The notes: generated by a model not told the origin, from the letters alone. Shown: positions 11,557 to 40,608, counted from the stretch's first letter. The stretch is 64,000 nt of DNA from Bacteroidota bacterium (GCA_016868785.1 VGFS01000004.1:4050-68049), one strand, 5' to 3'. Numbers and translations are program-made.

Positions 11557-13962
11557 ATGATTGTTCGATTGTTAAGCAGACCTTTTTTCTTGGCGTTATC
11601 GCTTTGCGCGCTAAGTGCGGTTGAGGTTGAAGCACAAACGCCGTCACCCAAAGCCAGCATCAGTGGTTATTTGCGGGAAAAGAGCAGTGGCGAAATGTTG
11701 GGCAATGTGGTTGTTGCTGCGGCACCCAGTGCCAGCAGAACCCTCTCCAACAGTTACGGGTTTTACTCCATCACAATTCCAAAAGGACAAGCTCAGTGGG
11801 TGTATTTTCGGTTTCCCGGTTTTTACGCAGACAGCATTTACTGGACAGCCAAAGCGGATACCGCGGTAAACATCGAATTGTTGGCCATTCAAGTGGTGGA
11901 ATCGATGGGGGCGGTTGAAATCAAAGCAAAGAAAACCACCATTGCCGATCGGGCAGACATGAGCAGAATTGATATTCCTGTACAGCAAATCAAAGAGATT
12001 CCTGCTTTGTTGGGTGAAAAAGATGTGCTGAAAGTGATCCAGCTCATGCCAGGGGTGCAAAAGGGGGGTGAAGGACAGTCGGGCATCTACGTGCGTGGTG
12101 GGGGTCCAGACCAGAATTTGATTGTTTTAGACGAGGCCATTGTTTACAATGCGAGTCATTTGTTTGGGTTCTTTTCTCTTTTCAATGGCGATGCGTTGCG
12201 GAGTGTGGAGTTGGTGAAAGGGGGATTTCCTTCACGCTATGGCGGAAGGCTGTCGAGTGTGATTGACATGAACATGAAAGAGGGCAATTACAAAAAATTC
12301 GCGGGCGAAGTGGGTGTGGGTGTGATTAGTTCACGGGCAGTTTTTGAAGGTCCAATCGTAAAAGGGAAAAGTTCATTCATGATATCCGGGCGTCGAACGT
12401 ATTTGGATGCGTTGGTTCAGCCTTTGATCATGGCAAGTACCAATGGCGCCAATGCGGGTTATTACTTTTACGACATGAATGCCAAGGCCAACTACATCTT
12501 ATCGAATAAAGACAAATTGTATGTGTCGGGGTATTTCGGACGGGATAAATTTTACCTGAACGACAAACAAGCCAAATCGCAATTCAAAACCAATTTTGGA
12601 TGGGGGAATAAAACTCTCACCGGTCGGTGGAATCATCAGTACAATCCCAAGACTTTTGCCAACGCGGCGTTGATTTATAGTCATTACGACTTGAGCATCA
12701 ACATCCTTCAGAAAGAGAACGATAGCAGTCAGTTTGAGTTGGGTTATTCCAGCACCATCAACGATTATGGGTTGAAATATGACGTGGATTTCCGACCCAA
12801 CCCCAAGCACATGATCCGGGCGGGATTTTCAACGATCAATCACCAATTCAGTCCCAGCGCCATCGTGTTGAAGGTGGGTTCAAACTTCAATTTTAACCGC
12901 AAAATTAAAGTCATCAATACGTATGAAAGTGGGGTGTATGTGGAGGACCAATGGCGTGAAGGGGCGTGGAACTTCTATCCGGGTTTGCGTGTGAGTCATT
13001 ACGTGGTTGAAAACAAACAGGTAATCAACCCTGAGCCGCGTTTGAGTATGGCATACAACATCCGCAAAGATTTGGCGTTGAAGGCCAGTTATGCCTTGAT
13101 GAATCAATACATTCATTTGTTGAGCAGCACCGGTATTGGTTTGCCAACAGATTTGTGGGTTCCAGCGACGGCCAATGTGAAACCCATGCAAAGTCAGCAG
13201 TTGGCCACGGGCATCGCCAAGGATTTCAACAAAGGATTTTCGTTGAGTGTGGAAGGGTATTACAAAACCATGACCAATGTAATTACATACAAAGAGGGGG
13301 CTTCTTTTTTGTTGGGCGATGACTTCTTTAATCCCAATGTGTCTACGAATGATAAGGCATGGGAGAGTCAGGTTACAAGTGGTCTGGGCTGGAGTTATGG
13401 GGCGGAGGTGTTTTTGCAAAAACAGGTTGGAAAATTGAGCGGTTGGATTGGATATACATTGAGTTGGACCCAGTTGCAGTTTGATGAAGTGAATCAGGGC
13501 ATTAAATACTATGCAAAGTATGATCGTAGGCACGATGCTTCCATTGTGTGTATTTACCGATTGAGTAAATTGTTTACGGCATCGGCTACATGGGTATACG
13601 GAACTGGCAATGCCATTACCATGCCCCAAGGGTATTTGAGGGGGTCGGGTCATTACATGGGTTCTTTTCCAGAGGTGTGGGATGCGGCGAGTGGATTTTT
13701 CAACAACGAGTTGATTGATTACGGCAAGCGCAACAGTTTCAGGATGGAGGCCTACCATCGTTTGGATGTGGGACTGCAATTTAAAAAGGAAAAGAAACGG
13801 GGTATACAAACTTGGGAATTGAGTTTTTATAATGCCTACAATCGGTATAATCCCTTCTTTTATTATGGACGGTTGAACGATGCGGGTACAGTGCGGACCT
13901 TGAAAAAGGCTACGTTGTTCCCCATGATTCCGTCTTTGAGTTGGACCTATAAATTTCGTTAA
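11557..13962 (+). CDS. TonB-dependent receptor with an N-terminal carboxypeptidase-regulatory-like domain
   Basis: Plug motifs DVLKVIQLMPGV and YVRGGGPDQNL; beta-barrel ending in YKF. Confidence 0.93.
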   Translation: MIVRLLSRPFFLALSLCALSAVEVEAQTPSPKASISGYLREKSSGEMLGNVVVAAAPSASRTLSNSYGFYSITIPKGQAQWVYFRFPGFYADSIYWTAKADTAVNIELLAIQVVESMGAVEIKAKKTTIADRADMSRIDIPVQQIKEIPALLGEKDVLKVIQLMPGVQKGGEGQSGIYVRGGGPDQNLIVLDEAIVYNASHLFGFFSLFNGDALRSVELVKGGFPSRYGGRLSSVIDMNMKEGNYKKFAGEVGVGVISSRAVFEGPIVKGKSSFMISGRRTYLDALVQPLIMASTNGANAGYYFYDMNAKANYILSNKDKLYVSGYFGRDKFYLNDKQAKSQFKTNFGWGNKTLTGRWNHQYNPKTFANAALIYSHYDLSINILQKENDSSQFELGYSSTINDYGLKYDVDFRPNPKHMIRAGFSTINHQFSPSAIVLKVGSNFNFNRKIKVINTYESGVYVEDQWREGAWNFYPGLRVSHYVVENKQVINPEPRLSMAYNIRKDLALKASYALMNQYIHLLSSTGIGLPTDLWVPATANVKPMQSQQLATGIAKDFNKGFSLSVEGYYKTMTNVITYKEGASFLLGDDFFNPNVSTNDKAWESQVTSGLGWSYGAEVFLQKQVGKLSGWIGYTLSWTQLQFDEVNQGIKYYAKYDRRHDASIVCIYRLSKLFTASATWVYGTGNAITMPQGYLRGSGHYMGSFPEVWDAASGFFNNELIDYGKRNSFRMEAYHRLDVGLQFKKEKKRGIQTWELSFYNAYNRYNPFFYYGRLNDAGTVRTLKKATLFPMIPSLSWTYKFR

Positions 13963-13970
13963 TCACAGTC

Positions 13971-14864
13971 ATGAAAAATCATATATTGCGTTGGATCGGT
14001 GTTTTGTTTTTGGCTGTTGCGGCAACGGGTTGCTATGACCAGGATGCCACGGTGGATTTACCCACTTACAACAAGCGCACGGCAATCACATGTTATTTGT
14101 CGCCCAAAGACCAAAACATCACGGTAGAATTGGGTTACACAAAACCCTATTTTGGTCCTCAAGATTACGAGATTCCCCGAGTGGGAGATGCCAAAGTGAC
14201 TATTACTGATTTAACGGTTGGGAAATCGGTGCAATTGCCCTTTGACTCTTCTATCATGTTGTATCGCATTCGGGCTTTTGCTTTGCCCATTATGAACGAG
14301 CATGAATATCGGGTAGATGTTATTCTGAAAGATGGGTCTGCATTTTTTGCAAAAACCAGGGTACCACCGGCCTTGAAGGAAACGGATTTGGCCATTGGTC
14401 AACATCGCATAGGAAAATTGGAGGCCAACAATTGGGGCGGTCAGAGTGTGAATGTTGGGGTAGAGTTGAAGTCTGGGACAACCCGTAGCGGGTATTTTTA
14501 TTCGCCCAAATTTGACCTTGTCATGGAAGACGGGTTGGGGGATTTTTATGGCTCCACTTTGTATTTCAGCAACGAGGGCATTGCCGGGGGAAAAACGGCC
14601 GATACCCTGCGTTATTTTTTCAATGATCGGATATTCATGGACATGGGACCCGGGGGTGGAACGCCCACAGATCCGTTGACGTTGCGTGAGTGTACGGGTA
14701 CTTTTTGGGTAATGGATGTTGGATACAAAGAACGGTACCTGCGCGATTTGCAGGTTTCCGACAATCCTTTCGCTGAGCCCGTATTGTTGTATTCAAACTG
14801 GAGCAATGATGCGGTGGGTGCCTTGGGTTCATACGATTGGGTAGAAACATCGCTGACACCTTAA
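13971..14864 (+). CDS. DUF4249-like lipoprotein, partner of the TonB receptor
   Basis: Lipobox ATGC; C-terminal NPFAEPVLLYSN...GALG; typical position after this receptor class. Confidence 0.8.
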   Translation: MKNHILRWIGVLFLAVAATGCYDQDATVDLPTYNKRTAITCYLSPKDQNITVELGYTKPYFGPQDYEIPRVGDAKVTITDLTVGKSVQLPFDSSIMLYRIRAFALPIMNEHEYRVDVILKDGSAFFAKTRVPPALKETDLAIGQHRIGKLEANNWGGQSVNVGVELKSGTTRSGYFYSPKFDLVMEDGLGDFYGSTLYFSNEGIAGGKTADTLRYFFNDRIFMDMGPGGGTPTDPLTLRECTGTFWVMDVGYKERYLRDLQVSDNPFAEPVLLYSNWSNDAVGALGSYDWVETSLTP

Positions 14865-16134: not shown

Positions 16135-17211
16135 ATGACAGAAGGATTTTTTCCCTTAACCGTAAAAAAATTGGTTCGTGAAACCGCGGACGCCACTACC
16201 TTGTATTTTGAAATCCCTGACAATCTGAAAGATACTTTTGCTTACACGGCTGGACAGTATCTCACGTTTGAGTTAGAATTGGCGGGTGAAAAAGTTCGTC
16301 GCTCATATTCATTGTGCACTTATGCGGGTGTGGATGCTATGCCTGCGGTGACGGTTAAGCGCGTTGATGGCGGTAAAATGAGTAATTACCTCAACGCCGA
16401 AATCAAAGAAGGCGACGTAGTGTCTGTGATGCCACCCATGGGAAAATTCACCGTGGTGCCTGATGCATCGCTTGCTGCGCACTATGTTTTGTTCGGTGGT
16501 GGAAGTGGAATTACTCCGGTGTTGGGTATTGCCAAAGCCGTTTTGGCTGATGAACCCAACAGCAAAGTAACCTTGGTATATGCCAACAGAAATTCAGAAT
16601 CTGTGATTTTCAAAGAGGTTTTGGCTGACATGGAAAAAGCCAGCAATGGTCGTTTCAAGGTACATCACAACTACGATACGGCGCCTATGACCTATTTTGG
16701 ATTGAGGGGTATGTTGAATGTAGACAAAGTGCAATCGATTGTAAAGTCGAAAATTGGTGGTTCTTTTGACCAATATCAATATTACATCTGCGGTCCAGGC
16801 CCTATGATGGAAGTAATCAAAGATGGTTTGCGTGGATTGGGTATCGCCAATGAACGGGTGAATACAGAGTATTTCTCAGCACCCACGAGCAAGAGTGCAG
16901 CCGACGAGAAACCCGCTCAGAGCACCGATTTTAACGGCGTTGCCCAAGTAACTTTAACCGTATACGGTAAAACGCATACCGTTACCTGTGACCAAAATAC
17001 CACCATTTTGAACGCGGCCATGAAGCAAGGCATTGATCCACCATACAGCTGTACGGTGGGTGTTTGTACTACTTGTCGCGCCAAAGTATTGGCGGGTAAG
17101 ATGCACATGCTCGAGCGTGAAGGATTAAGTGATGCGGAAATCGCCGAAGGATACGTACTAACGTGTCAGTCTGTACCCCGCAGCGCGGAAATCACCCTGA
17201 AATACGAATAA
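16135..17211 (+). CDS. PaaE-like FAD/NAD(P)H oxidoreductase with a C-terminal 2Fe-2S ferredoxin
   Basis: Motifs RRSYSLC, GGSGITP, YICGPGPM and PPYSCTVGVCTTCRA...LTCQ. Confidence 0.92.
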   Translation: MTEGFFPLTVKKLVRETADATTLYFEIPDNLKDTFAYTAGQYLTFELELAGEKVRRSYSLCTYAGVDAMPAVTVKRVDGGKMSNYLNAEIKEGDVVSVMPPMGKFTVVPDASLAAHYVLFGGGSGITPVLGIAKAVLADEPNSKVTLVYANRNSESVIFKEVLADMEKASNGRFKVHHNYDTAPMTYFGLRGMLNVDKVQSIVKSKIGGSFDQYQYYICGPGPMMEVIKDGLRGLGIANERVNTEYFSAPTSKSAADEKPAQSTDFNGVAQVTLTVYGKTHTVTCDQNTTILNAAMKQGIDPPYSCTVGVCTTCRAKVLAGKMHMLEREGLSDAEIAEGYVLTCQSVPRSAEITLKYE

Positions 17212-17212
17212 T

Positions 17213-18259
17213 TCATTCGTCGTCGGACTCCAACGCAGGGGCGGCTTGGGTGTATTTTCTAATTTTATTGAGGACGGTACTGAAGTCTTCGGGCAGTTCG
17301 CTGCTGAAGAACATGTTTTCGCCCGTTGTGGGATGAACAAAGCCCAATTCTTTGGCATGGAGGGCTTGCCTTGGCATGATATCGAAACAATTTTCGATGA
17401 AAGGTTTGAATTTTGGCAGGGCGGAACCTTTTCTTATTTCAGATCCACCGTACAGTTCATCGGAAAAAAGAGGGTGTTTGATGCTTGAAAAGTGTGCGCG
17501 AATTTGGTGGGTTCGTCCCGTTTCCAGCTCACACTGCACCAACGACGCGAAATAAAAATTATCCAGTGTGGTGTAGTGGCTAATGGCCAATTTTCCTTCT
17601 TCCTCGCTCTCGAAACATTTTGAACGTCTACGGTCGGCTGGATCTCGGTTGAGGTAGCTGCGTATGGTGCCATCTTTGGGTTTGGGTTCGCCCCAGACCA
17701 GGGCCCAATAGCGGCGGTGGATGCTGTGATCGAAGAATTGTTTTCCCAAATGTGATAGAGCGAAGTCGGTTTTGCCAATAACCAATAACCCTGAGGTGTC
17801 TTTGTCGATGCGATGCACCAACCCTGGTCTGTGGTATTGGTCTTTGGTTGGCAATTGTCCGAAGTGATAAACGAGTGCATTGACTAGGGTGCCGGAGTAG
17901 TTATTGTGTCCGGGATGCACCACCATGCCGGCTACTTTGTTTACCACGAGTAGGTCATCGTCTTCGTAGATGATGTTCAGGGGGATGTTTTCGGGGTAAA
18001 CTTCGGTATCTCTTGGGGCGGTGGGCAGCAGCACACGAACGTGATCGTTCGGTTTGATTTTGTAGTTGCTTTTTGTGGGTTTGTCGTTTACGACCACTGC
18101 GCCAGACTCGATGCCTGCTTGTATTTTAGACCGACTGGCATTGGCAATTTTTTGCATCAACCATTTGTCGACGCGCATTTGCTCTTGACCTGGATCAGCG
18201 GTAAACGCGTAGTGTTCGTACAATCCTTCGTCGAGGATTTCTTCTTCTGCTAAACTCAC
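17213..18259 (-). CDS. rluD: RluA-family 23S rRNA pseudouridine synthase, RluD-like
   Basis: S4 domain plus motifs VVHPGHNNYSGTLVN, HRIDKDTSG, LETGRTHQIR and RQALHA. Confidence 0.9.
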   Translation of the reverse strand: MSLAEEEILDEGLYEHYAFTADPGQEQMRVDKWLMQKIANASRSKIQAGIESGAVVVNDKPTKSNYKIKPNDHVRVLLPTAPRDTEVYPENIPLNIIYEDDDLLVVNKVAGMVVHPGHNNYSGTLVNALVYHFGQLPTKDQYHRPGLVHRIDKDTSGLLVIGKTDFALSHLGKQFFDHSIHRRYWALVWGEPKPKDGTIRSYLNRDPADRRRSKCFESEEEGKLAISHYTTLDNFYFASLVQCELETGRTHQIRAHFSSIKHPLFSDELYGGSEIRKGSALPKFKPFIENCFDIMPRQALHAKELGFVHPTTGENMFFSSELPEDFSTVLNKIRKYTQAAPALESDDE

Positions 18260-18267
18260 ACTGCAAA

Positions 18268-19167
18268 TTAAAGGCTAAACCGGAGTTGTCCGAGCATCAA
18301 TCCACCCCAACCTGCTTGATTTACCAAAACTGTTTGTCCTTTGGCGTTGGTCACCTCGGTGGCTTTTTCCAAAAAGGTATGGGTATGTCCGCCTACGATG
18401 GCAGTAATACCGTGGGTTTTTGCGGCAAGTTTGAGGTCGTCGATTTTATCAGTATCGTAAGAATACCCCAAATGAGAAACAACAAAAACGGCATCGCAGT
18501 GGGCTTGATTGCGGAGGTAATCGACGGTTTTTTGGAGGGAGGCAACGGGGTCTTGGTAGACCAATCCGGGAATCACGCGGTCGAGGATGAGGTTTTCGGG
18601 GCTAATACCTACGCCGGTAACTCCGATTGTTTTTCCGCCGATTTCCACAATTTTATAGGGTTTTACGAATTCTTTGAGGCGGGTTTGCGAGAGTTCGTAA
18701 TTGCAATTGATCATGGGGATGCCGGGATTTTTTTCCAGCATGTTGGCCAGGTGATCGATGCCATTGTCGAAATCGTGGTTGCCCATGGTGGTGGCGTGGT
18801 AGCCCATGTTTTGCATCCATTGGTATTCAAGTTGTCCTCCAAACAAGTTGAAATAGGGGGTTCCTTGAAACACATCACCACAATCGAGCAGCAGCACGTG
18901 GGGATGGTGGCTGCGGTGTTGTTGAATTAAGGTGGCCAGGTTGGCGATGCCGCCTTTTCCGGCCAGGGGGTGATTGGCCGGAAAAGGCTCAATGCGGGAG
19001 TGCAGATCATTGGTGTGCAACACGAGAAGTTCGAAGTGTTCCCGTGATTTTTGTTGCTGTGATTGCTGGGCTATGGATAATCCTCTGCCAATCAACTCTG
19101 TGGGCAAAGTGGCTCCGGCGGCCAAAACGGCCATCTGCTGCAAAAACCGTTTTCTATTGAGGCTCAT
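18268..19167 (-). CDS. 5'-nucleotidase metallophosphoesterase domain with a Tat-like signal
   Basis: Motifs LHTNDLHS, DCGDVFQG, MGNHDFD, SHLG and GGHTH; N-terminus SLNRKRFL. Confidence 0.92.
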   Translation of the reverse strand: MSLNRKRFLQQMAVLAAGATLPTELIGRGLSIAQQSQQQKSREHFELLVLHTNDLHSRIEPFPANHPLAGKGGIANLATLIQQHRSHHPHVLLLDCGDVFQGTPYFNLFGGQLEYQWMQNMGYHATTMGNHDFDNGIDHLANMLEKNPGIPMINCNYELSQTRLKEFVKPYKIVEIGGKTIGVTGVGISPENLILDRVIPGLVYQDPVASLQKTVDYLRNQAHCDAVFVVSHLGYSYDTDKIDDLKLAAKTHGITAIVGGHTHTFLEKATEVTNAKGQTVLVNQAGWGGLMLGQLRFSL

Positions 19168-20032
19168 GGTAGATGCGGATTTGTTTGCGTGGATCAATGA
19201 ATTTATTGGATTCGTATTCGGCCTTTAGTTGATCGGCGATCACATTTCTGAGGTTGATGCCCGCGTAATGGATTTTTTTGGCGTGCTTGAGCATGGTAAA
19301 TCCATCACCGCCCACCACCATGTAGGAGTTAACTGCGACCAGGTAATCGCGACGGGTATCGAGGGGTTGGGTATAAATGGGATTCAACAAGTCGTTCACG
19401 GTGAGGATGGGTCGGGCATTGATTTTAACCGAGGCATATCGATTGTCTTTTCGGGTTGTCCCATTGTTGTAAGTCAGCAGAAATCCTGCGGCGGGGGTCC
19501 CTTGAAGCTGTGCAATGTATTGAAACAGACTATCTACATAAACACCGGGCAATTGCAACAGAACCAGTTCATTGTCGAACGGCATCACTTCAAACAACTG
19601 CTTCAGGGTAACAGGGCCCGGATACAAACCGGTGCGAAATCCGCCGTTGTTGCTGATGGCGAAATGACAGGGAATCCCGAATTGCTGTTGGCTGATTGTG
19701 TTGGCGCTGAGCAGCATGTAGTCGGCGGCCAATCGACCCAAATTGCCCACGAAAAAGGCGTTGGAAAATGGAGAGTCGATGTTGGCGATGTAGGCCGACA
19801 TTTCATCTTCCATTTGGGTTTTGTAGGGGTGGATGAGGGCGATACTCAAGGAGTCATCGGGCACCGAATCGCAGACAGCAATGTTGGCCACTGCCTGGAA
19901 GTTGGGAGAAGATTGGGCGGTCTTGTGCGTTGAAAAGCAGGCGCTGAAAATCAACGAGATACCGCAAATCCAAGCCGTGATATTACGATGAATTGGTAAA
20001 GAGGTACTGGATGGTTGGGGGCTTCTCAACAT
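19154..20032 (-). CDS. 5'-nucleotidase C-terminal (substrate-binding) domain, probable lipoprotein
   Basis: Motifs NNGGFR, FEVMPFDNEL and YMVVGGDG; FSAC lipobox. Confidence 0.88.
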   Translation of the reverse strand: MLRSPQPSSTSLPIHRNITAWICGISLIFSACFSTHKTAQSSPNFQAVANIAVCDSVPDDSLSIALIHPYKTQMEDEMSAYIANIDSPFSNAFFVGNLGRLAADYMLLSANTISQQQFGIPCHFAISNNGGFRTGLYPGPVTLKQLFEVMPFDNELVLLQLPGVYVDSLFQYIAQLQGTPAAGFLLTYNNGTTRKDNRYASVKINARPILTVNDLLNPIYTQPLDTRRDYLVAVNSYMVVGGDGFTMLKHAKKIHYAGINLRNVIADQLKAEYESNKFIDPRKQIRIYHEPQ

Positions 20033-37293: not shown

Positions 37294-39315
37294 ATGAAAA
37301 AAACAATACTTTCTTTGATGGCTGTGGTGTCGTTGGGTGCTTTTGCGCAGACGGGATACTACGTGGCTCCGGGTACTGGAACGGGTAATCCAGGCGGGTT
37401 GAATGGCGATGCAGAATACCCTCCAGGGGGTGGTTTGCCAACTGGATGGACAACGCTGTTGACCGGCCCTCAAAATGAAATGTGGAGTGCATCGCAGAGT
37501 TTGCCTTTTGCATTCAAATTCAATGATCAGGATGTGACAAGCTACAAGGTGTCTGCCAACGGTGTTGTCACGTTTGACGTAGCGTCAACTACAACGCCCT
37601 CTGCGGTGAATGCCGATTTGCCCAACTCGGGACTTCCCAATCAATCGGTGTGTGTTTGGGGTGTGGGTGCAACCGCTACGGGTGACTATGTAGTGACAAA
37701 AACCTTCGGTACTACAGGCAAGCGTCAGCATTGGATTCAATACAACAGTTGTTCTGAAGCCAACATTGGAACGGGTTGGATTTATGCCAGCATCGTGTTG
37801 GAGCAGGGAACCAACAACATTTACATCGTTGACCAGCGCTACAATGGTACTGCGGCTTCCAAAATTTCTGTGGGTATCCAAATTGATGGCAGCACTGCAA
37901 TCAAAGTAAGTGAAACCCCTGCTTATGGCATGAAAGCCGTGAATGATCCTACCACTGCAGATAACGTTTATTATACTTTCTTGCCAGGCAGTCAGCCTGC
38001 TGATGAAGCGGGTATCACTGCATTGAACTTGGGAAATTATATTAGTGTGAAAAATGCACCGGTGGATATTGCTTTCGGTGTGATCAATGGTGGTACCAAT
38101 TCGATTACCTCTATGGATGTAGAATACACAGTAGATGGTGGTGCAGCGGTGGCTGGCAAAATTACCGGATTGAACATTGCTTCTGGTGCTAAAGCCAACG
38201 TTTCTCATCCAACAAAATGGTCTGGGGTTACAGTTGGTTCACACGCCATTGCAGTAAAAATTGTCAAAGTGAACGGTGCCAATGATACCAAAGTGGGTAA
38301 CAATAGCGCAAGCAAAACTGTGATTGTTTTTGATAAAGCGGTTGATCGCAAGATTTTGAATGAGGTATTTTCTTCATCTACTTGTGGTCCTTGCACACAA
38401 GGTAACATCAACTACAACAACGTGATTGCGAACAAAACCAAGCACAGCACAATCAAGTATCAGGTGTATTGGCCTGGAACAGGCGATCCTTATTGCACGC
38501 AGGAAGTACGTGATCGTACATCGTACTACGGCATCAATACTGTGCCTCGCATGGAGGTAGATGGTGGATGGGATGGAAACGCAGGTTCATTCTCAACAGG
38601 TTTGTATGATGATTTCCAAGCCAAGCCCGCTTTTGTTGAAATTACTGGAAGTGTGTCTTTGACATGGAAGAACACTGTGACTTTGGATGTGACCTTGAAT
38701 CCTTTGTTGGATAATGCGAGTAACAATTTGAAGTTGCATGCCGTGATTGTTGAAGGTATTACCTATGCCAACAAAAAGTCTAACGGTGAAACCAAGTTTG
38801 AAAAGGTGATGAAGAAGATGATGACGGGTTCTGTTGGACAGGTATTGACGCCTTTAAAGAAAGACACCAAGGTAACCAAGAAGATCGCTTATACATTCAA
38901 TGGTGGCTATCGCTTGCCTACGGATGGTTCAGCTGCTCAGCACATCAATCATTTGACAGAGAACAGTGTTGAAACTTGGAATGATTTGGCGGTTGTTGTT
39001 TTTGTTCAGGATGCCACTACCAAAGAGGTATTGCAATCGGAGACCTTCCCTATCGCATTGGTAGGTACAGAGGCGGTTGAGCAAAACTTGAATTTGTACC
39101 CCAACCCTGCCAACAGCGTATTTGTGGTTGAGGCAAAGGAAATGGGTAACGCGGCGGTTGTGGTAACTGACATGCAGGGCAAGGTAGTATTCAACGGTAA
39201 CTTGAATGCTGGTGCGTTGAGCATGAACGTTGCTGATTGGTCGAACGGTGTATACATGGTATCGGTTAACGGCAACAGCAAGAACTTGAACAGCAAGATT
39301 GTGGTTCGTCACTAA
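37294..39315 (+). CDS. T9SS-secreted protein with an Omp28-like thioredoxin-fold domain
   Basis: NEVFSSSTCGPC (CxxC), YYGINTVP and LAVVVFVQD..TKEVLQS; CTD LYPNPAN...SNGVY. Confidence 0.85.
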   Translation: MKKTILSLMAVVSLGAFAQTGYYVAPGTGTGNPGGLNGDAEYPPGGGLPTGWTTLLTGPQNEMWSASQSLPFAFKFNDQDVTSYKVSANGVVTFDVASTTTPSAVNADLPNSGLPNQSVCVWGVGATATGDYVVTKTFGTTGKRQHWIQYNSCSEANIGTGWIYASIVLEQGTNNIYIVDQRYNGTAASKISVGIQIDGSTAIKVSETPAYGMKAVNDPTTADNVYYTFLPGSQPADEAGITALNLGNYISVKNAPVDIAFGVINGGTNSITSMDVEYTVDGGAAVAGKITGLNIASGAKANVSHPTKWSGVTVGSHAIAVKIVKVNGANDTKVGNNSASKTVIVFDKAVDRKILNEVFSSSTCGPCTQGNINYNNVIANKTKHSTIKYQVYWPGTGDPYCTQEVRDRTSYYGINTVPRMEVDGGWDGNAGSFSTGLYDDFQAKPAFVEITGSVSLTWKNTVTLDVTLNPLLDNASNNLKLHAVIVEGITYANKKSNGETKFEKVMKKMMTGSVGQVLTPLKKDTKVTKKIAYTFNGGYRLPTDGSAAQHINHLTENSVETWNDLAVVVFVQDATTKEVLQSETFPIALVGTEAVEQNLNLYPNPANSVFVVEAKEMGNAAVVVTDMQGKVVFNGNLNAGALSMNVADWSNGVYMVSVNGNSKNLNSKIVVRH

Positions 39316-39362
39316 TTGTGTTGAGCTAAACAATTTTTTCGTTCGCAGTTCGTTTTTAGTGT

Positions 39363-39506
39363 ATGAAATCAAAGAAAGGGGCTGTTCTGATACTGTTGTT
39401 GTTTTTTGGAGCGGCGATGGTGTTTGAAGCTTGTGTAACTACCAAGGGTAAGTCTTGCAAGCCACCCAGAAAGCGATATTATCATCACACATTCATTGAT
39501 ATGTAA
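39363..39506 (+). CDS. 47-aa putative lipoprotein/lipopeptide, below the ORF-track length cutoff
   Basis: Manual translation MKSKKGAVLILLLFFGAAMVFEAC-VTTKGKSCKPPRKRYYHHTFIDM; immediately followed by a terminator. Confidence 0.72.
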   Translation: MKSKKGAVLILLLFFGAAMVFEACVTTKGKSCKPPRKRYYHHTFIDM

Positions 39507-39508
39507 TT

Positions 39509-39539
39509 AAAAAAGCCCTGCGAAAGCGGGGCTTTTTTT
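39509..39539. terminator. Intrinsic terminator, possibly bidirectional
   Basis: A6-GCCCTGC-GAAA-GCGGGGC-T7. Confidence 0.9.
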
Positions 39540-39591: not shown

Positions 39592-40608
39592 ATGTTATTG
39601 CAAAACATTGTGAACCGGGAGGAACTGAAACGTCGGATGTATGCCGATGTTCGTCCTTACACCACCATTTCTTTTTATTGTTATCATCCCATTGAGGATC
39701 CCATGGCATTCCGCAATGATTTGTTTTTGCGGTTGAGTCGGTTGGAGGTTGTGGGGAGGATTTACATCGCCCGGGAGGGCATCAATGCTCAGATTGCTTT
39801 GCCATCGGTTCATTTTGAGTCGTTTAAAGCGGATTTATACACGATTGATTTCTTGAACAACATTCGGTTGAATGTGGCCATCGAAGAGAAACAGAAGAGT
39901 TTTATCAAATTGGACATCAAGGTAAGGGAGAAGATTGTGGCCGATGGGATTAGTGATCCAACGTTTAGTTTGCAGAATCGCGGCAAGTATTTGGCGGCTG
40001 CGGAATGGAATCAGAAGATGGCCGACCCGAATGCGGTGGTGGTTGATATGCGCAACCATTATGAGAGTGAGGTGGGTAGGTTTGAGGGGGCTAGCTGTCC
40101 GGATACAGATACGTTTCGGGAAGAGTTGGCGCGGGTGTTGGATTTGTACAAGGAGGAGAAGGACAAGCCCATTTTGATGTATTGTACGGGTGGTATTCGA
40201 TGCGAGAAGGCCAGTGCTTGGATGAAGCACAATGGTTACAATGAGGTATATCATTTGGAGGGAGGGATCATCAATTACGTGAATCAGGTGAAATCGGCGG
40301 GACTTGAGAACAAGTTCAAGGGGATAAATTTTGTGTTTGATCAGCGGTTGGCGGAGCGTGTATCGGATGATGTGATTGCTTCTTGCCATCAATGTGGGGC
40401 GCCGGCGGACACGCACATCAATTGCGCGAATACGGGATGCCATTTGTTGTTCATTCAGTGTGCGTTTTGTGCGGAGAAATACGAACACTGCTGTTCGGAG
40501 GCTTGTAGGTCGGTGACGCATTTGCCGCAGGAGGAGCAAATTCAGTTGCGCAAGGGCAAGCCGGCGGGTAGAATTTTTAGTAAGGGAAGATTTCCTGGCA
40601 AAGTGTAA
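39592..40608 (+). CDS. trhO: Rhodanese-domain tRNA uridine(34) hydroxylase, TrhO/YceA family
   Basis: Motifs GRIYIAREGINAQ, DMRNHYESEVGRF, YCTGGIRCEKAS, LEGGIINY and FVFDQR. Confidence 0.92.
   Translation: MLLQNIVNREELKRRMYADVRPYTTISFYCYHPIEDPMAFRNDLFLRLSRLEVVGRIYIAREGINAQIALPSVHFESFKADLYTIDFLNNIRLNVAIEEKQKSFIKLDIKVREKIVADGISDPTFSLQNRGKYLAAAEWNQKMADPNAVVVDMRNHYESEVGRFEGASCPDTDTFREELARVLDLYKEEKDKPILMYCTGGIRCEKASAWMKHNGYNEVYHLEGGIINYVNQVKSAGLENKFKGINFVFDQRLAERVSDDVIASCHQCGAPADTHINCANTGCHLLFIQCAFCAEKYEHCCSEACRSVTHLPQEEQIQLRKGKPAGRIFSKGRFPGKV

Follow-up and report, generated by a model that had tools for sequence, protein, structure and literature searches.

A small open reading frame (ORF) of 47 codons, located on the plus strand at positions 39363 to 39506 of a 64,000-nucleotide stretch of DNA from a Bacteroidota bacterium (GCA_016868785.1, VGFS01000004.1:4050-68049; the window below means this whole stretch), is almost certainly a genuine protein-coding gene, as judged by comparison with relatives. 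It belongs to a new, well-defined family of putative mini-lipoproteins, which is unusual for its extreme shortness combined with strong constraint, its sharing between hosts and phages, and its recurrent deletion. Mini-lipoproteins of such size are already known, namely the entericidins, release proteins, VirB7 and LptM. As delimited by sequence searches, the family is confined to three genera of one freshwater Bacteroidota family and to crAss-like phages.

Coding evidence, signal sequence and family motif

The frame opens with an ATG at 39363, closes with a TAA at 39504-39506 and translates as MKSKKGAVLILLLFFGAAMVFEACVTTKGKSCKPPRKRYYHHTFIDM; re-reading of start, stop and translation agreed with an earlier sequence-only reading, which had placed an ORF at these positions. 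Chance ORFs are common (78 of at least 30 amino acids (aa) within 7 kb). Since an ORF of such size alone is unremarkable, the coding case rests on comparison with relatives, in which orthologs were detected by six-frame search. Orthologs were found at the same site in 13 of the 18 same-genus species examined, all genomes being metagenome-assembled genomes (MAGs), for which presence or absence may partly mirror population polymorphism or assembly. The homologous frames of same-genus genomes were open at identities from 96% down to 33%, and the frame always followed a gene for a T9SS-sorted secreted protein (T9SS, type IX secretion system) and directly preceded a terminator. Length differences and indels among orthologs comprised whole codons without exception, keeping the frame, and precursors of 38, 39, 42, 43, 44 or 47 residues occurred among the members. 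The signal part diverged freely and carried indels, and the tail was conserved. Codon statistics were taken over the 24 codons from the Cys onward (the mature part), where differences at codon positions 1, 2 and 3 numbered 380, 282 and 747, respectively. Pairwise proportions of synonymous (pS) and nonsynonymous (pN) differences were 0.4-0.98 and 0.03-0.4, with synonymous sites near-saturated, and the ratio of nonsynonymous to synonymous rates (dN/dS) was 0.02-0.3 wherever dS was unsaturated. The sequence-only reading had called the ORF a real gene and had named conservation in relatives as a check; the open orthologous frames at the same site, the low dN/dS and the in-frame indels bear this out. 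The gene and its parts are as follows.

39363 to 39506, plus strand: small ORF (mini-lipoprotein precursor gene), 47 codons, stop included in the interval, with orthologs at the same site.
39363 to 39431, plus strand: predicted signal peptide, with n-region MKSKK, h-region GAVLILLLFFGAAMVF and the box F-E-A preceding the Cys.
39432 to 39434, plus strand: codon of Cys24, the predicted lipidated +1 Cys, invariant in 22 of 22 members and preceded by A, S or G.
39432 to 39503, plus strand: predicted mature 24-residue peptide CVTTKGKSCKPPRKRYYHHTFIDM, net charge +5, with a second invariant Cys (Cys32) at 39456-39458.

In the window peptide, MKSKK is followed by an uncharged stretch of 16-18 residues and by the Cys at position 24. 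Family-wide, there were one to three N-terminal K/R, an h-region of 13-18 residues and a Cys at 16-24 with A, S or G before it; because the h-regions are only 13-18 residues long, a signal peptide is suggested rather than a membrane anchor. The members were compared with PROSITE PS51257, which describes a K/R n-region, an uncharged h-region, a Cys at 15-35 and the lipobox [LIVMFWSTAG]2-[LIVMFYSTAGCQ]-[AGS]-C. It was matched by 12 of 22 members, including those of the other genera and of phages, and the lipoboxes of the other two genera were canonical (SSC, TAC, AAC). In the ten failing members, among them that of the window with V-F-E-A-C, the sole cause was a Glu at -2 (FEAC, LESC, LEAC, MESC). 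The description of a cationic peptide with a signal sequence in the earlier reading was sound, as a basic N-region and a hydrophobic core end at an invariant Cys. The "lipobox-like" FEAC proposed there holds as an invariant Cys after a small residue and fails as a canonical lipobox, the Glu at -2 violating PS51257. The genome of the window encodes Lgt (PF01790, 1.2e-38) and LspA (PF01252, 3.3e-32). Family members are probably lipoproteins.

In Bacteroidota, lipoproteins destined for the cell surface carry an export signal after the +1 Cys, of the form K-(D/E)2, Q-A-(D/E)2, SDDDD or SDDFE (PMC5080379). No D or E was present at +2 to +6 in any of the 22 members, and since this acidic signal is absent the peptide should stay on the periplasmic side. 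The 24-mer from the Cys onward contained the six K/R counted in the earlier reading and one D. The label "two-cysteine" used there is misleading, as the first Cys would bear the lipid; with Cys+1 lipidated only one free thiol is left, so that an internal disulfide would be impossible and an intermolecular one possible. A helix was predicted by AF2 (AlphaFold2) at residues 4-26.

Full-length members were recovered by profile search from two further genera of the same taxonomic family (MKKLLIALAIIIVASSCGSQKKACSPARKSYYHKTFLNF, MKNMILIVIIAILLTACGTPKSCSPQRKKYYHGAFLQF and MKKAILALCILSIGLAACGSPKTCSPKRKKYFHGDFLNL), and a sample of 400 genomes from across the class yielded signal-peptide matches only. 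Protein databases held seven clusters among 5.8 billion proteins and six representatives among 1.84 billion; the named homologs were NCBI records of a "hypothetical protein" from Bacteroidia MAGs. The carriers were MAGs, each of about 2 Mb, of uncultured Bacteroidota/Flavobacteriales from fresh water: Lake Baikal as well as rivers, ponds and reservoirs. The mature consensus was C-x-[ST]-x-[KR]-..-C-..-K-x-Y-[YFW]-H-x-x-F-x-x-[MFL]-COOH, in which C1, C9, K14, Y16 and F21 (mature numbering) were invariant and H18 nearly so; the second Cys lay at +7 to +9 across members, and the C-terminal residue was always M, F or L. The YY pair varied among Y, F and W, the position of the second His held H/N/D/K/G/S/E/R, and one member had N at His41. 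The YYHH patch pointed out in the sequence-only reading is thus present in the window peptide and is not conserved as a patch, only Y39 and H41 being invariant or nearly so, and the idea of metal binding loses its basis with the variation of the second His and the YY pair. The other two roles suggested there, membrane activity and an outer-membrane accessory function, may apply.

The peptide had no match in Pfam, NCBIfam or PADLOC (E <= 1 for Pfam and PADLOC; three members for PADLOC), and a search of the PDB with the mature part gave no match. With the full profile, the PDB search returned only lipoprotein signal sequences (N-terminal half), those of PsaA and TrwH. All matches to PHROG were non-significant, the window peptide having none; one g6 member matched phrog_1119 (Cor) at E = 0.018, mainly through the signal peptide. 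No description of the family was found in the literature searched. One member (P0006) is labelled in IMG as a "predicted component of type VI protein secretion system"; similarity of the lipoprotein signal peptide has most likely led to this automatic mislabel. Genome G093 carried two different members on contigs of differing GC content (C2 and C88), representing either a true second copy or bin contamination, the latter estimated at 3%. A second mini-lipoprotein candidate, MKKVANLIAIAVLLAAVFTSCGTRKQDRCPEVGQKTTARR, was noted outside the window in the same genome (contig C33:20980-21102, plus strand), with homologs in another genus of the same family (MKIAKLIVVVGIATLFITSCGTSKKNQCPSMGAKTFKTR); this group is also lineage-restricted. 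In a profile-profile comparison it aligned with the studied family at 95.8% probability, the alignment being limited to the signal peptide plus the C-G-T-x-K...C start. There may be several families of two-Cys lipopeptides, about 20 residues in length, in these bacteria.

Deletions in hosts and homologs in phages

In five same-genus species without the ORF, the order was T9SS gene, terminator and trhO, with a gap of 20-60 nt between stop and terminator. One of them keeps the last ORF codons (…TATCACCACACTTTTATCAAGATGTAA), matching a sister species, and another keeps part of the element found 5' of the gene. In the TrhO tree the ORF-less species were scattered, each beside ORF carriers, so that five losses are needed, at least four of them on well-supported branches. 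At least four and probably five independent deletions have thus occurred in the same genus. The gene is dispensable and turns over fast, yet it is strongly constrained where kept.

Phage homologs were sought with a degenerate DNA pattern for the 24-residue form, which was run on IMG/VR and on metagenomes. IMG/VR gave eight pattern matches, six of which were MRYLIVAVVIVGLMSCASGRGHSCSKSNKNYWHNEFNKF-type genes on viral contigs of 32-122 kb; as a control, the corresponding patterns for 23 and 22 residues matched viral contigs by chance only, the matches containing stops. From the metagenomes came 22 members with a signal sequence: 13 were of host type (GC 0.43-0.48, with one at 0.39) and nine, more divergent variants among them, were of phage type (GC 0.33-0.43). 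Chance matches to the pattern also occurred (9 stop-free and 38 with stops). A tblastn search of the phage peptide against 50,697 GenBank phages gave no significant match. The most distant database member, MRYLVVVLVIVGLMSCASGRGHRCSKASKNYWHNEFSKF, came from a 5-kb metagenome contig packed tightly with small genes; matches to phage protein families were obtained for two of these genes (2.7e-19 and 2.3e-28). Member P0009 lies on a phage-like contig. The phage peptides formed a clade with 100/100 support on a long branch and were closest to one subclade of the genus of the window (12 of 24 mature residues); for the direction of transfer, phage to host or host to phage, the peptide tree is too short to resolve. 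The phage alleles differed mostly synonymously (pN/pS about 0.1-0.3).

One complete phage of 121,956 bp (36% GC) was obtained, with ORFs of 2300-2500 residues. Its large terminase was nearest those of crAss-like, Cellulophaga, Flavobacterium and Bacteroides phages, with a Leptolyngbya phage as the single best match. One of the phage proteins has a T9SS sorting domain (1.3e-10), which indicates a Bacteroidota host. The peptide gene is at about 105.2 kb, in a block of about ten small genes that are each separated by a hairpin and T-run, and this block lies between the replication and tail-fibre genes.

Further features of the phage contigs were recorded. In the 122-kb crAss-like phage (G534, locus L075), proteins with signal peptides are encoded at 12385-14277, 17157-18623 and 18620-19603, one with cohesin domains and a T9SS C-terminal sorting domain and one with a C-type lectin domain, suggesting export of phage proteins through the host type IX secretion system. 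Three tandem proteins with two transmembrane (TM) segments each (77, 70 and 82 aa) and a holin-like shape are encoded at L074 4242-4988 and L064 2467-3213, directly upstream of the peptide gene in some phages, a single 57-aa TM protein occupying that place in others. A 95-aa lipoprotein is encoded a few genes downstream of the phage peptide gene. Searches of PHROG and Pfam gave no match for the two-TM trio, the 57-aa TM protein or the 95-aa lipoprotein.

Terminator, 5' element and neighbouring genes

The features surrounding the gene in the window are as follows.

37294 to 39315, plus strand: upstream neighbour, a 673-aa T9SS-sorted secreted protein (Por_Secre_tail, 2e-12).
39330 to 39354, plus strand: conserved 5' element ACAATTTTTTCGTTC-N4-TTCGTT, with TTCGTT recurring at a period of 11 nt; the only such element in the 2.07-Mb genome.
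39509 to 39539, plus strand: intrinsic terminator, A6, GCCCUGC-GAAA-GCGGGGC, U7, possibly usable in both directions.
39592 to 40608, plus strand: downstream neighbour trhO (tRNA U34 hydroxylase; NCBIfam NF001133, 2.1e-76).

The gene order T9SS gene, ORF, terminator and trhO was constant in the genus, and the T9SS gene, whose protein ends in ...IVVRH*, was the upstream neighbour in every same-genus locus. In the window its stop is separated from the start of the small ORF by 47 nt, with no terminator in between. The sequence-only reading had named this neighbour Omp28-like; the Omp28 Pfam match is below threshold (26.1 bits against a cut-off of 34.9), and the solid domain is the T9SS C-terminal sorting domain. 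A functional tie between the peptide and this neighbour was considered and rejected, the upstream T9SS proteins of two genera sharing the sorting domain only.

The terminator begins with an A-tract at 39509, 2 nt after the stop, and consists of a stem (39515-39521 paired with 39526-39532), a GAAA loop and T7 at 39533-39539. Its folding energy was -20.2 kcal/mol (z = -4.3; 0 of 200 shuffles equal), and it was retained in orthologous loci with compensatory stem changes. The strong terminator reported in the earlier reading at this distance was thus recovered in position and fold. It was also taken there as support for the gene; this part falls, because in ORF-less relatives the terminator lies directly after the T9SS gene and serves it, so that no independent support for the ORF is provided. 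Stem variants across species included GCCCUGC/GCGGGGC, GGGCCCUGC/GCAGGGCCC and GCCCCGG/CCGGGGC, and the hairpin is flanked by A- and T-tracts on either side and could work both ways. A search of the region with Rfam gave no match above the gathering score; the best sub-threshold matches, which sit on the terminator hairpin, were Phe_leader (27.2 bits, gathering score 55) and Leu_leader (25.6 bits, gathering score 50).

The 5' element was conserved in most same-genus loci and has no match to the promoter box of Bacteroidota, TAnnTTTG, or to the phage motif described below. TTCGTT-N5-TTCGTT was considered as the mark of a regulon (e.g. a response-regulator box as for mgrB/PhoP) and rejected with a single site in the genome; no regulon is visible, since the 5' repeat is unique. 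Derivation from the recurrent phage motif TTTTTTCTTTTCTATT was also rejected, the best host site scoring 8.0 bits (rank 1609 genome-wide); the phage motif is mostly the U-tract of the preceding terminator.

In the second genus the order was rmuC, ORF and aldo-keto reductase gene, with a gap of about 10 nt between ORF and reductase gene and a TAnnTTTG promoter box about 55 nt upstream; the third genus had a TMEM164-like gene, the ORF and rmuC, in this order. At loci L019, L027, L066 and L160 the peptide gene adjoins rmuC, on its upstream side in one genus and on its downstream side in the other. The adjacency is taken as leftover synteny, because rmuC is absent from the genome of the window. 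The neighbourhood names no functional partner, and the context differs between genera.

Possible functions and comparison with known systems

The best explanation overall, put forward tentatively, is a periplasm-facing lipopeptide that would bind an outer-membrane protein and possibly mask a phage receptor. Under this explanation, we infer that the precursor would be exported through Sec, would receive a lipid on Cys24 and would be cleaved by signal peptidase II, leaving a 24-residue, lipid-anchored peptide with a net charge of +5. The peptide would face the periplasm, most likely from the inner leaflet of the outer membrane, and its conserved tail (the free Cys, K-x-Y-[YFW]-H-x-x-F and the hydrophobic C-terminus) would dock onto an outer-membrane protein, so that a phage receptor might be modulated or masked from the periplasmic side. 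A cost to receptor function would account for the repeated loss in hosts. The phage lipoproteins Llp, Cor and Rtp45 provide the analogy; Llp and Rtp45 are small, periplasmic and act from the inner side to inactivate receptors of the outer membrane (PMC9586334, PMC12685063). Receptor masking is favoured because a phage sister subfamily lies near tail-fibre genes and the host gene has been repeatedly deleted; taken by itself and by this analogy, the phage-receptor role is possible and somewhat less secure than the explanation as a whole.

Several observations weigh against this explanation. Among about 49 putative lipoboxes from long ORFs in the genome of the window, Glu at -2 occurred in none and Gln in four, which makes processing of the window's own member less certain. 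The AF2 tail had no confident fold (pLDDT, the predicted local distance difference test, about 50), and mature peptides of 22-24 residues compare with about 60 in exclusion lipoproteins. No significant similarity to models of Cor, Llp, spanin, entericidin or LptM was found. The phage gene is near the fibre genes and not adjacent to them, at a distance of 2.6-3.2 kb, divergent and with 4-8 small genes between. The rmuC synteny, stable in every carrier genome seen of the two other genera, looks more like that of a housekeeping accessory than that of a defence gene.

The main rival is accordingly drawn from known envelope machines, with the peptide acting in the LptM or VirB7 manner as a small non-essential subunit or assembly factor of an outer-membrane machine, bound by its tail and possibly disulfide-linked through Cys32, and the phage copy captured. 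This is rather unlikely on balance. A single-copy chromosomal gene under strong purifying selection, the rmuC synteny in two genera, one invariant free Cys with a conserved C-terminal strand-like motif, and a weak signal-part PDB match that includes the 47-aa VirB7-like TrwH all fit it, and VirB7 on VirB9 is a precedent, as is LptM, a non-essential lipoprotein of about 6 kDa that acts on LptDE (PMC10567701). Core machines are universal, however, whereas the family is limited to three genera of one family, was deleted five times independently in one genus, matches neither PF13627 nor any other family and has no conserved envelope gene as neighbour. Lysis, inner-membrane and metal readings were rated less likely than either receptor masking or the accessory role. 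A membrane-active or lytic lipopeptide, like entericidin B, the colicin release proteins or the o-spanins, might serve phage lysis, host programmed lysis or competition, and would agree with a size and charge near those of entericidins and release proteins, with the three holin-like two-TM proteins immediately upstream in some phage genomes and with weak PHROG matches to an Rz-like spanin (E = 0.018). It is nevertheless improbable: none of about 12 neighbouring phage proteins matched endolysin, holin or spanin families, neither an i-spanin partner nor an antidote gene is beside the host gene, the Entericidin Pfam model was unmatched at E <= 1, the AF2 tail is not amphipathic-helical, and a retained lytic gene without a regulator sits badly with a dN/dS of about 0.05 across genera.

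Slightly more improbable is an uncleaved small inner-membrane protein with a permanent anchor and a basic cytoplasmic tail (positive-inside), like enterobacterial regulatory membrane proteins. The Glu at -2 in the subclade of the window breaks the lipobox rule, the tail carries +5 to +7 against +1 to +3 at the N-terminus, and the single long AF2 helix runs through the box; but the hydrophobic stretch is 13-14 residues in half of the members, too short for a bilayer, the Cys is invariant after A/S/G with textbook lipoboxes in the other genera and phages, and it is the tail that is fixed, the hydrophobic part being free to evolve. The invariance of Cys32 and Tyr39 and the near-invariance of His41 would suit a metal- or haem-binding lipopeptide with Cys32, His41 and the tyrosines as ligands; with YYHH unconserved, the second His replaced by N, D, K, G, S, E or R, an N for His41 in one member, no known metal-site motif in the Pfam or PDB searches and no metal-related genes nearby, this is very improbable. 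Least credible of all, and hardly to be entertained, is that no functional protein is made and that the ORF serves trhO as a translated leader or attenuator, or belongs to the 3' untranslated region of the T9SS gene. The arrangement of a short ORF, a terminator at once and then a gene, together with the sub-threshold Phe_leader and Leu_leader matches, would suit a leader, but those matches fall short of the gathering score and coincide with the terminator hairpin, the genes that follow the peptide gene in other genera and in phages are unrelated, and ORF-less relatives retain both terminator and trhO. A leader is disfavoured above all because the peptide and not the RNA is conserved, synonymous sites being saturated.

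Very small genes are mostly missed by annotation, and of the roughly ten protein records here none was reliably named by function. The family is a clear example of a real gene, 38-47 codons long, whose product of 22-24 residues is under strong constraint and which is common to uncultured freshwater Bacteroidota and crAss-like phages. It is conceivable, though unlikely, that these 22-24-residue lipopeptides constitute a new, very short receptor-masking class, used for superinfection exclusion by phages and as a cheap chromosomal defence by hosts; loss would then occur when the receptor cost exceeds the protection, which would explain the five deletions. If the peptide turns out to target a phage receptor or some other outer-membrane protein, no shorter lipoprotein effector of that kind would be known; it would also supply a compact natural ligand for an outer-membrane protein of Bacteroidota and a handle on phage-host pairing in abundant, not-yet-grown lake bacteria. 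If not, a well-defined mini-lipoprotein family worth a family model still results.

Among known systems, the entericidins A and B (PF08085) are alike in their 41-48-residue precursors, mature forms in the 20-residue range and a start resembling C-N-T-x-R-G, but they are Gly/Ala-rich, weakly basic at most, organised as a toxin/antidote pair and proteobacterial, and PF08085 was not matched by the studied peptide. The VirB7/TrwH-type mini-lipoproteins of type IV secretion systems (T4SS) are likewise short, with precursors of about 45-55 residues, and the free Cys of VirB7 forms an intermolecular disulfide with its partner; the TrwH match covers the signal peptide only (E = 0.49), and no T4SS genes are near the ORF. 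Phage o-spanins of the Rz1 type are small outer-membrane lipoproteins with a Cys for intermolecular disulfides and a K-P-P-like sequence after it. The studied peptide differs from them in not being proline-rich and in lacking an i-spanin partner and a nearby endolysin; no i-spanin ORF was found in the host locus, and 12 phage neighbours had no lysis-family match. LptM (YifL, PF13627) resembles the family in being a non-essential lipoprotein of the outer membrane, very small in size, with Gly at +2 and a start like C-G-x-K-G (PMC10567701). It acts by an N-terminal part inserted into its beta-barrel partner, whereas the studied family conserves the C-terminal half, and it is proteobacterial, has about 47 mature residues and lacks a second Cys; PF13627 was not matched at E <= 1. 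Llp (T5), Cor (T1/phi80 group) and Rtp45 are encoded near genes for receptor binding or for the tail, each being expressed as a small unit of its own, and Rtp45 binds partly by beta-strand pairing (PMC9586334, PMC12685063). They have an internal disulfide where the studied family has one free Cys, and, unlike them, the host gene is chromosomal and vertically inherited, the window's copy being chromosomal. Like Llp, Cor and Rtp45, the phage subfamily, found on six IMG/VR and nine metagenome contigs, is a small phage-encoded putative lipoprotein.

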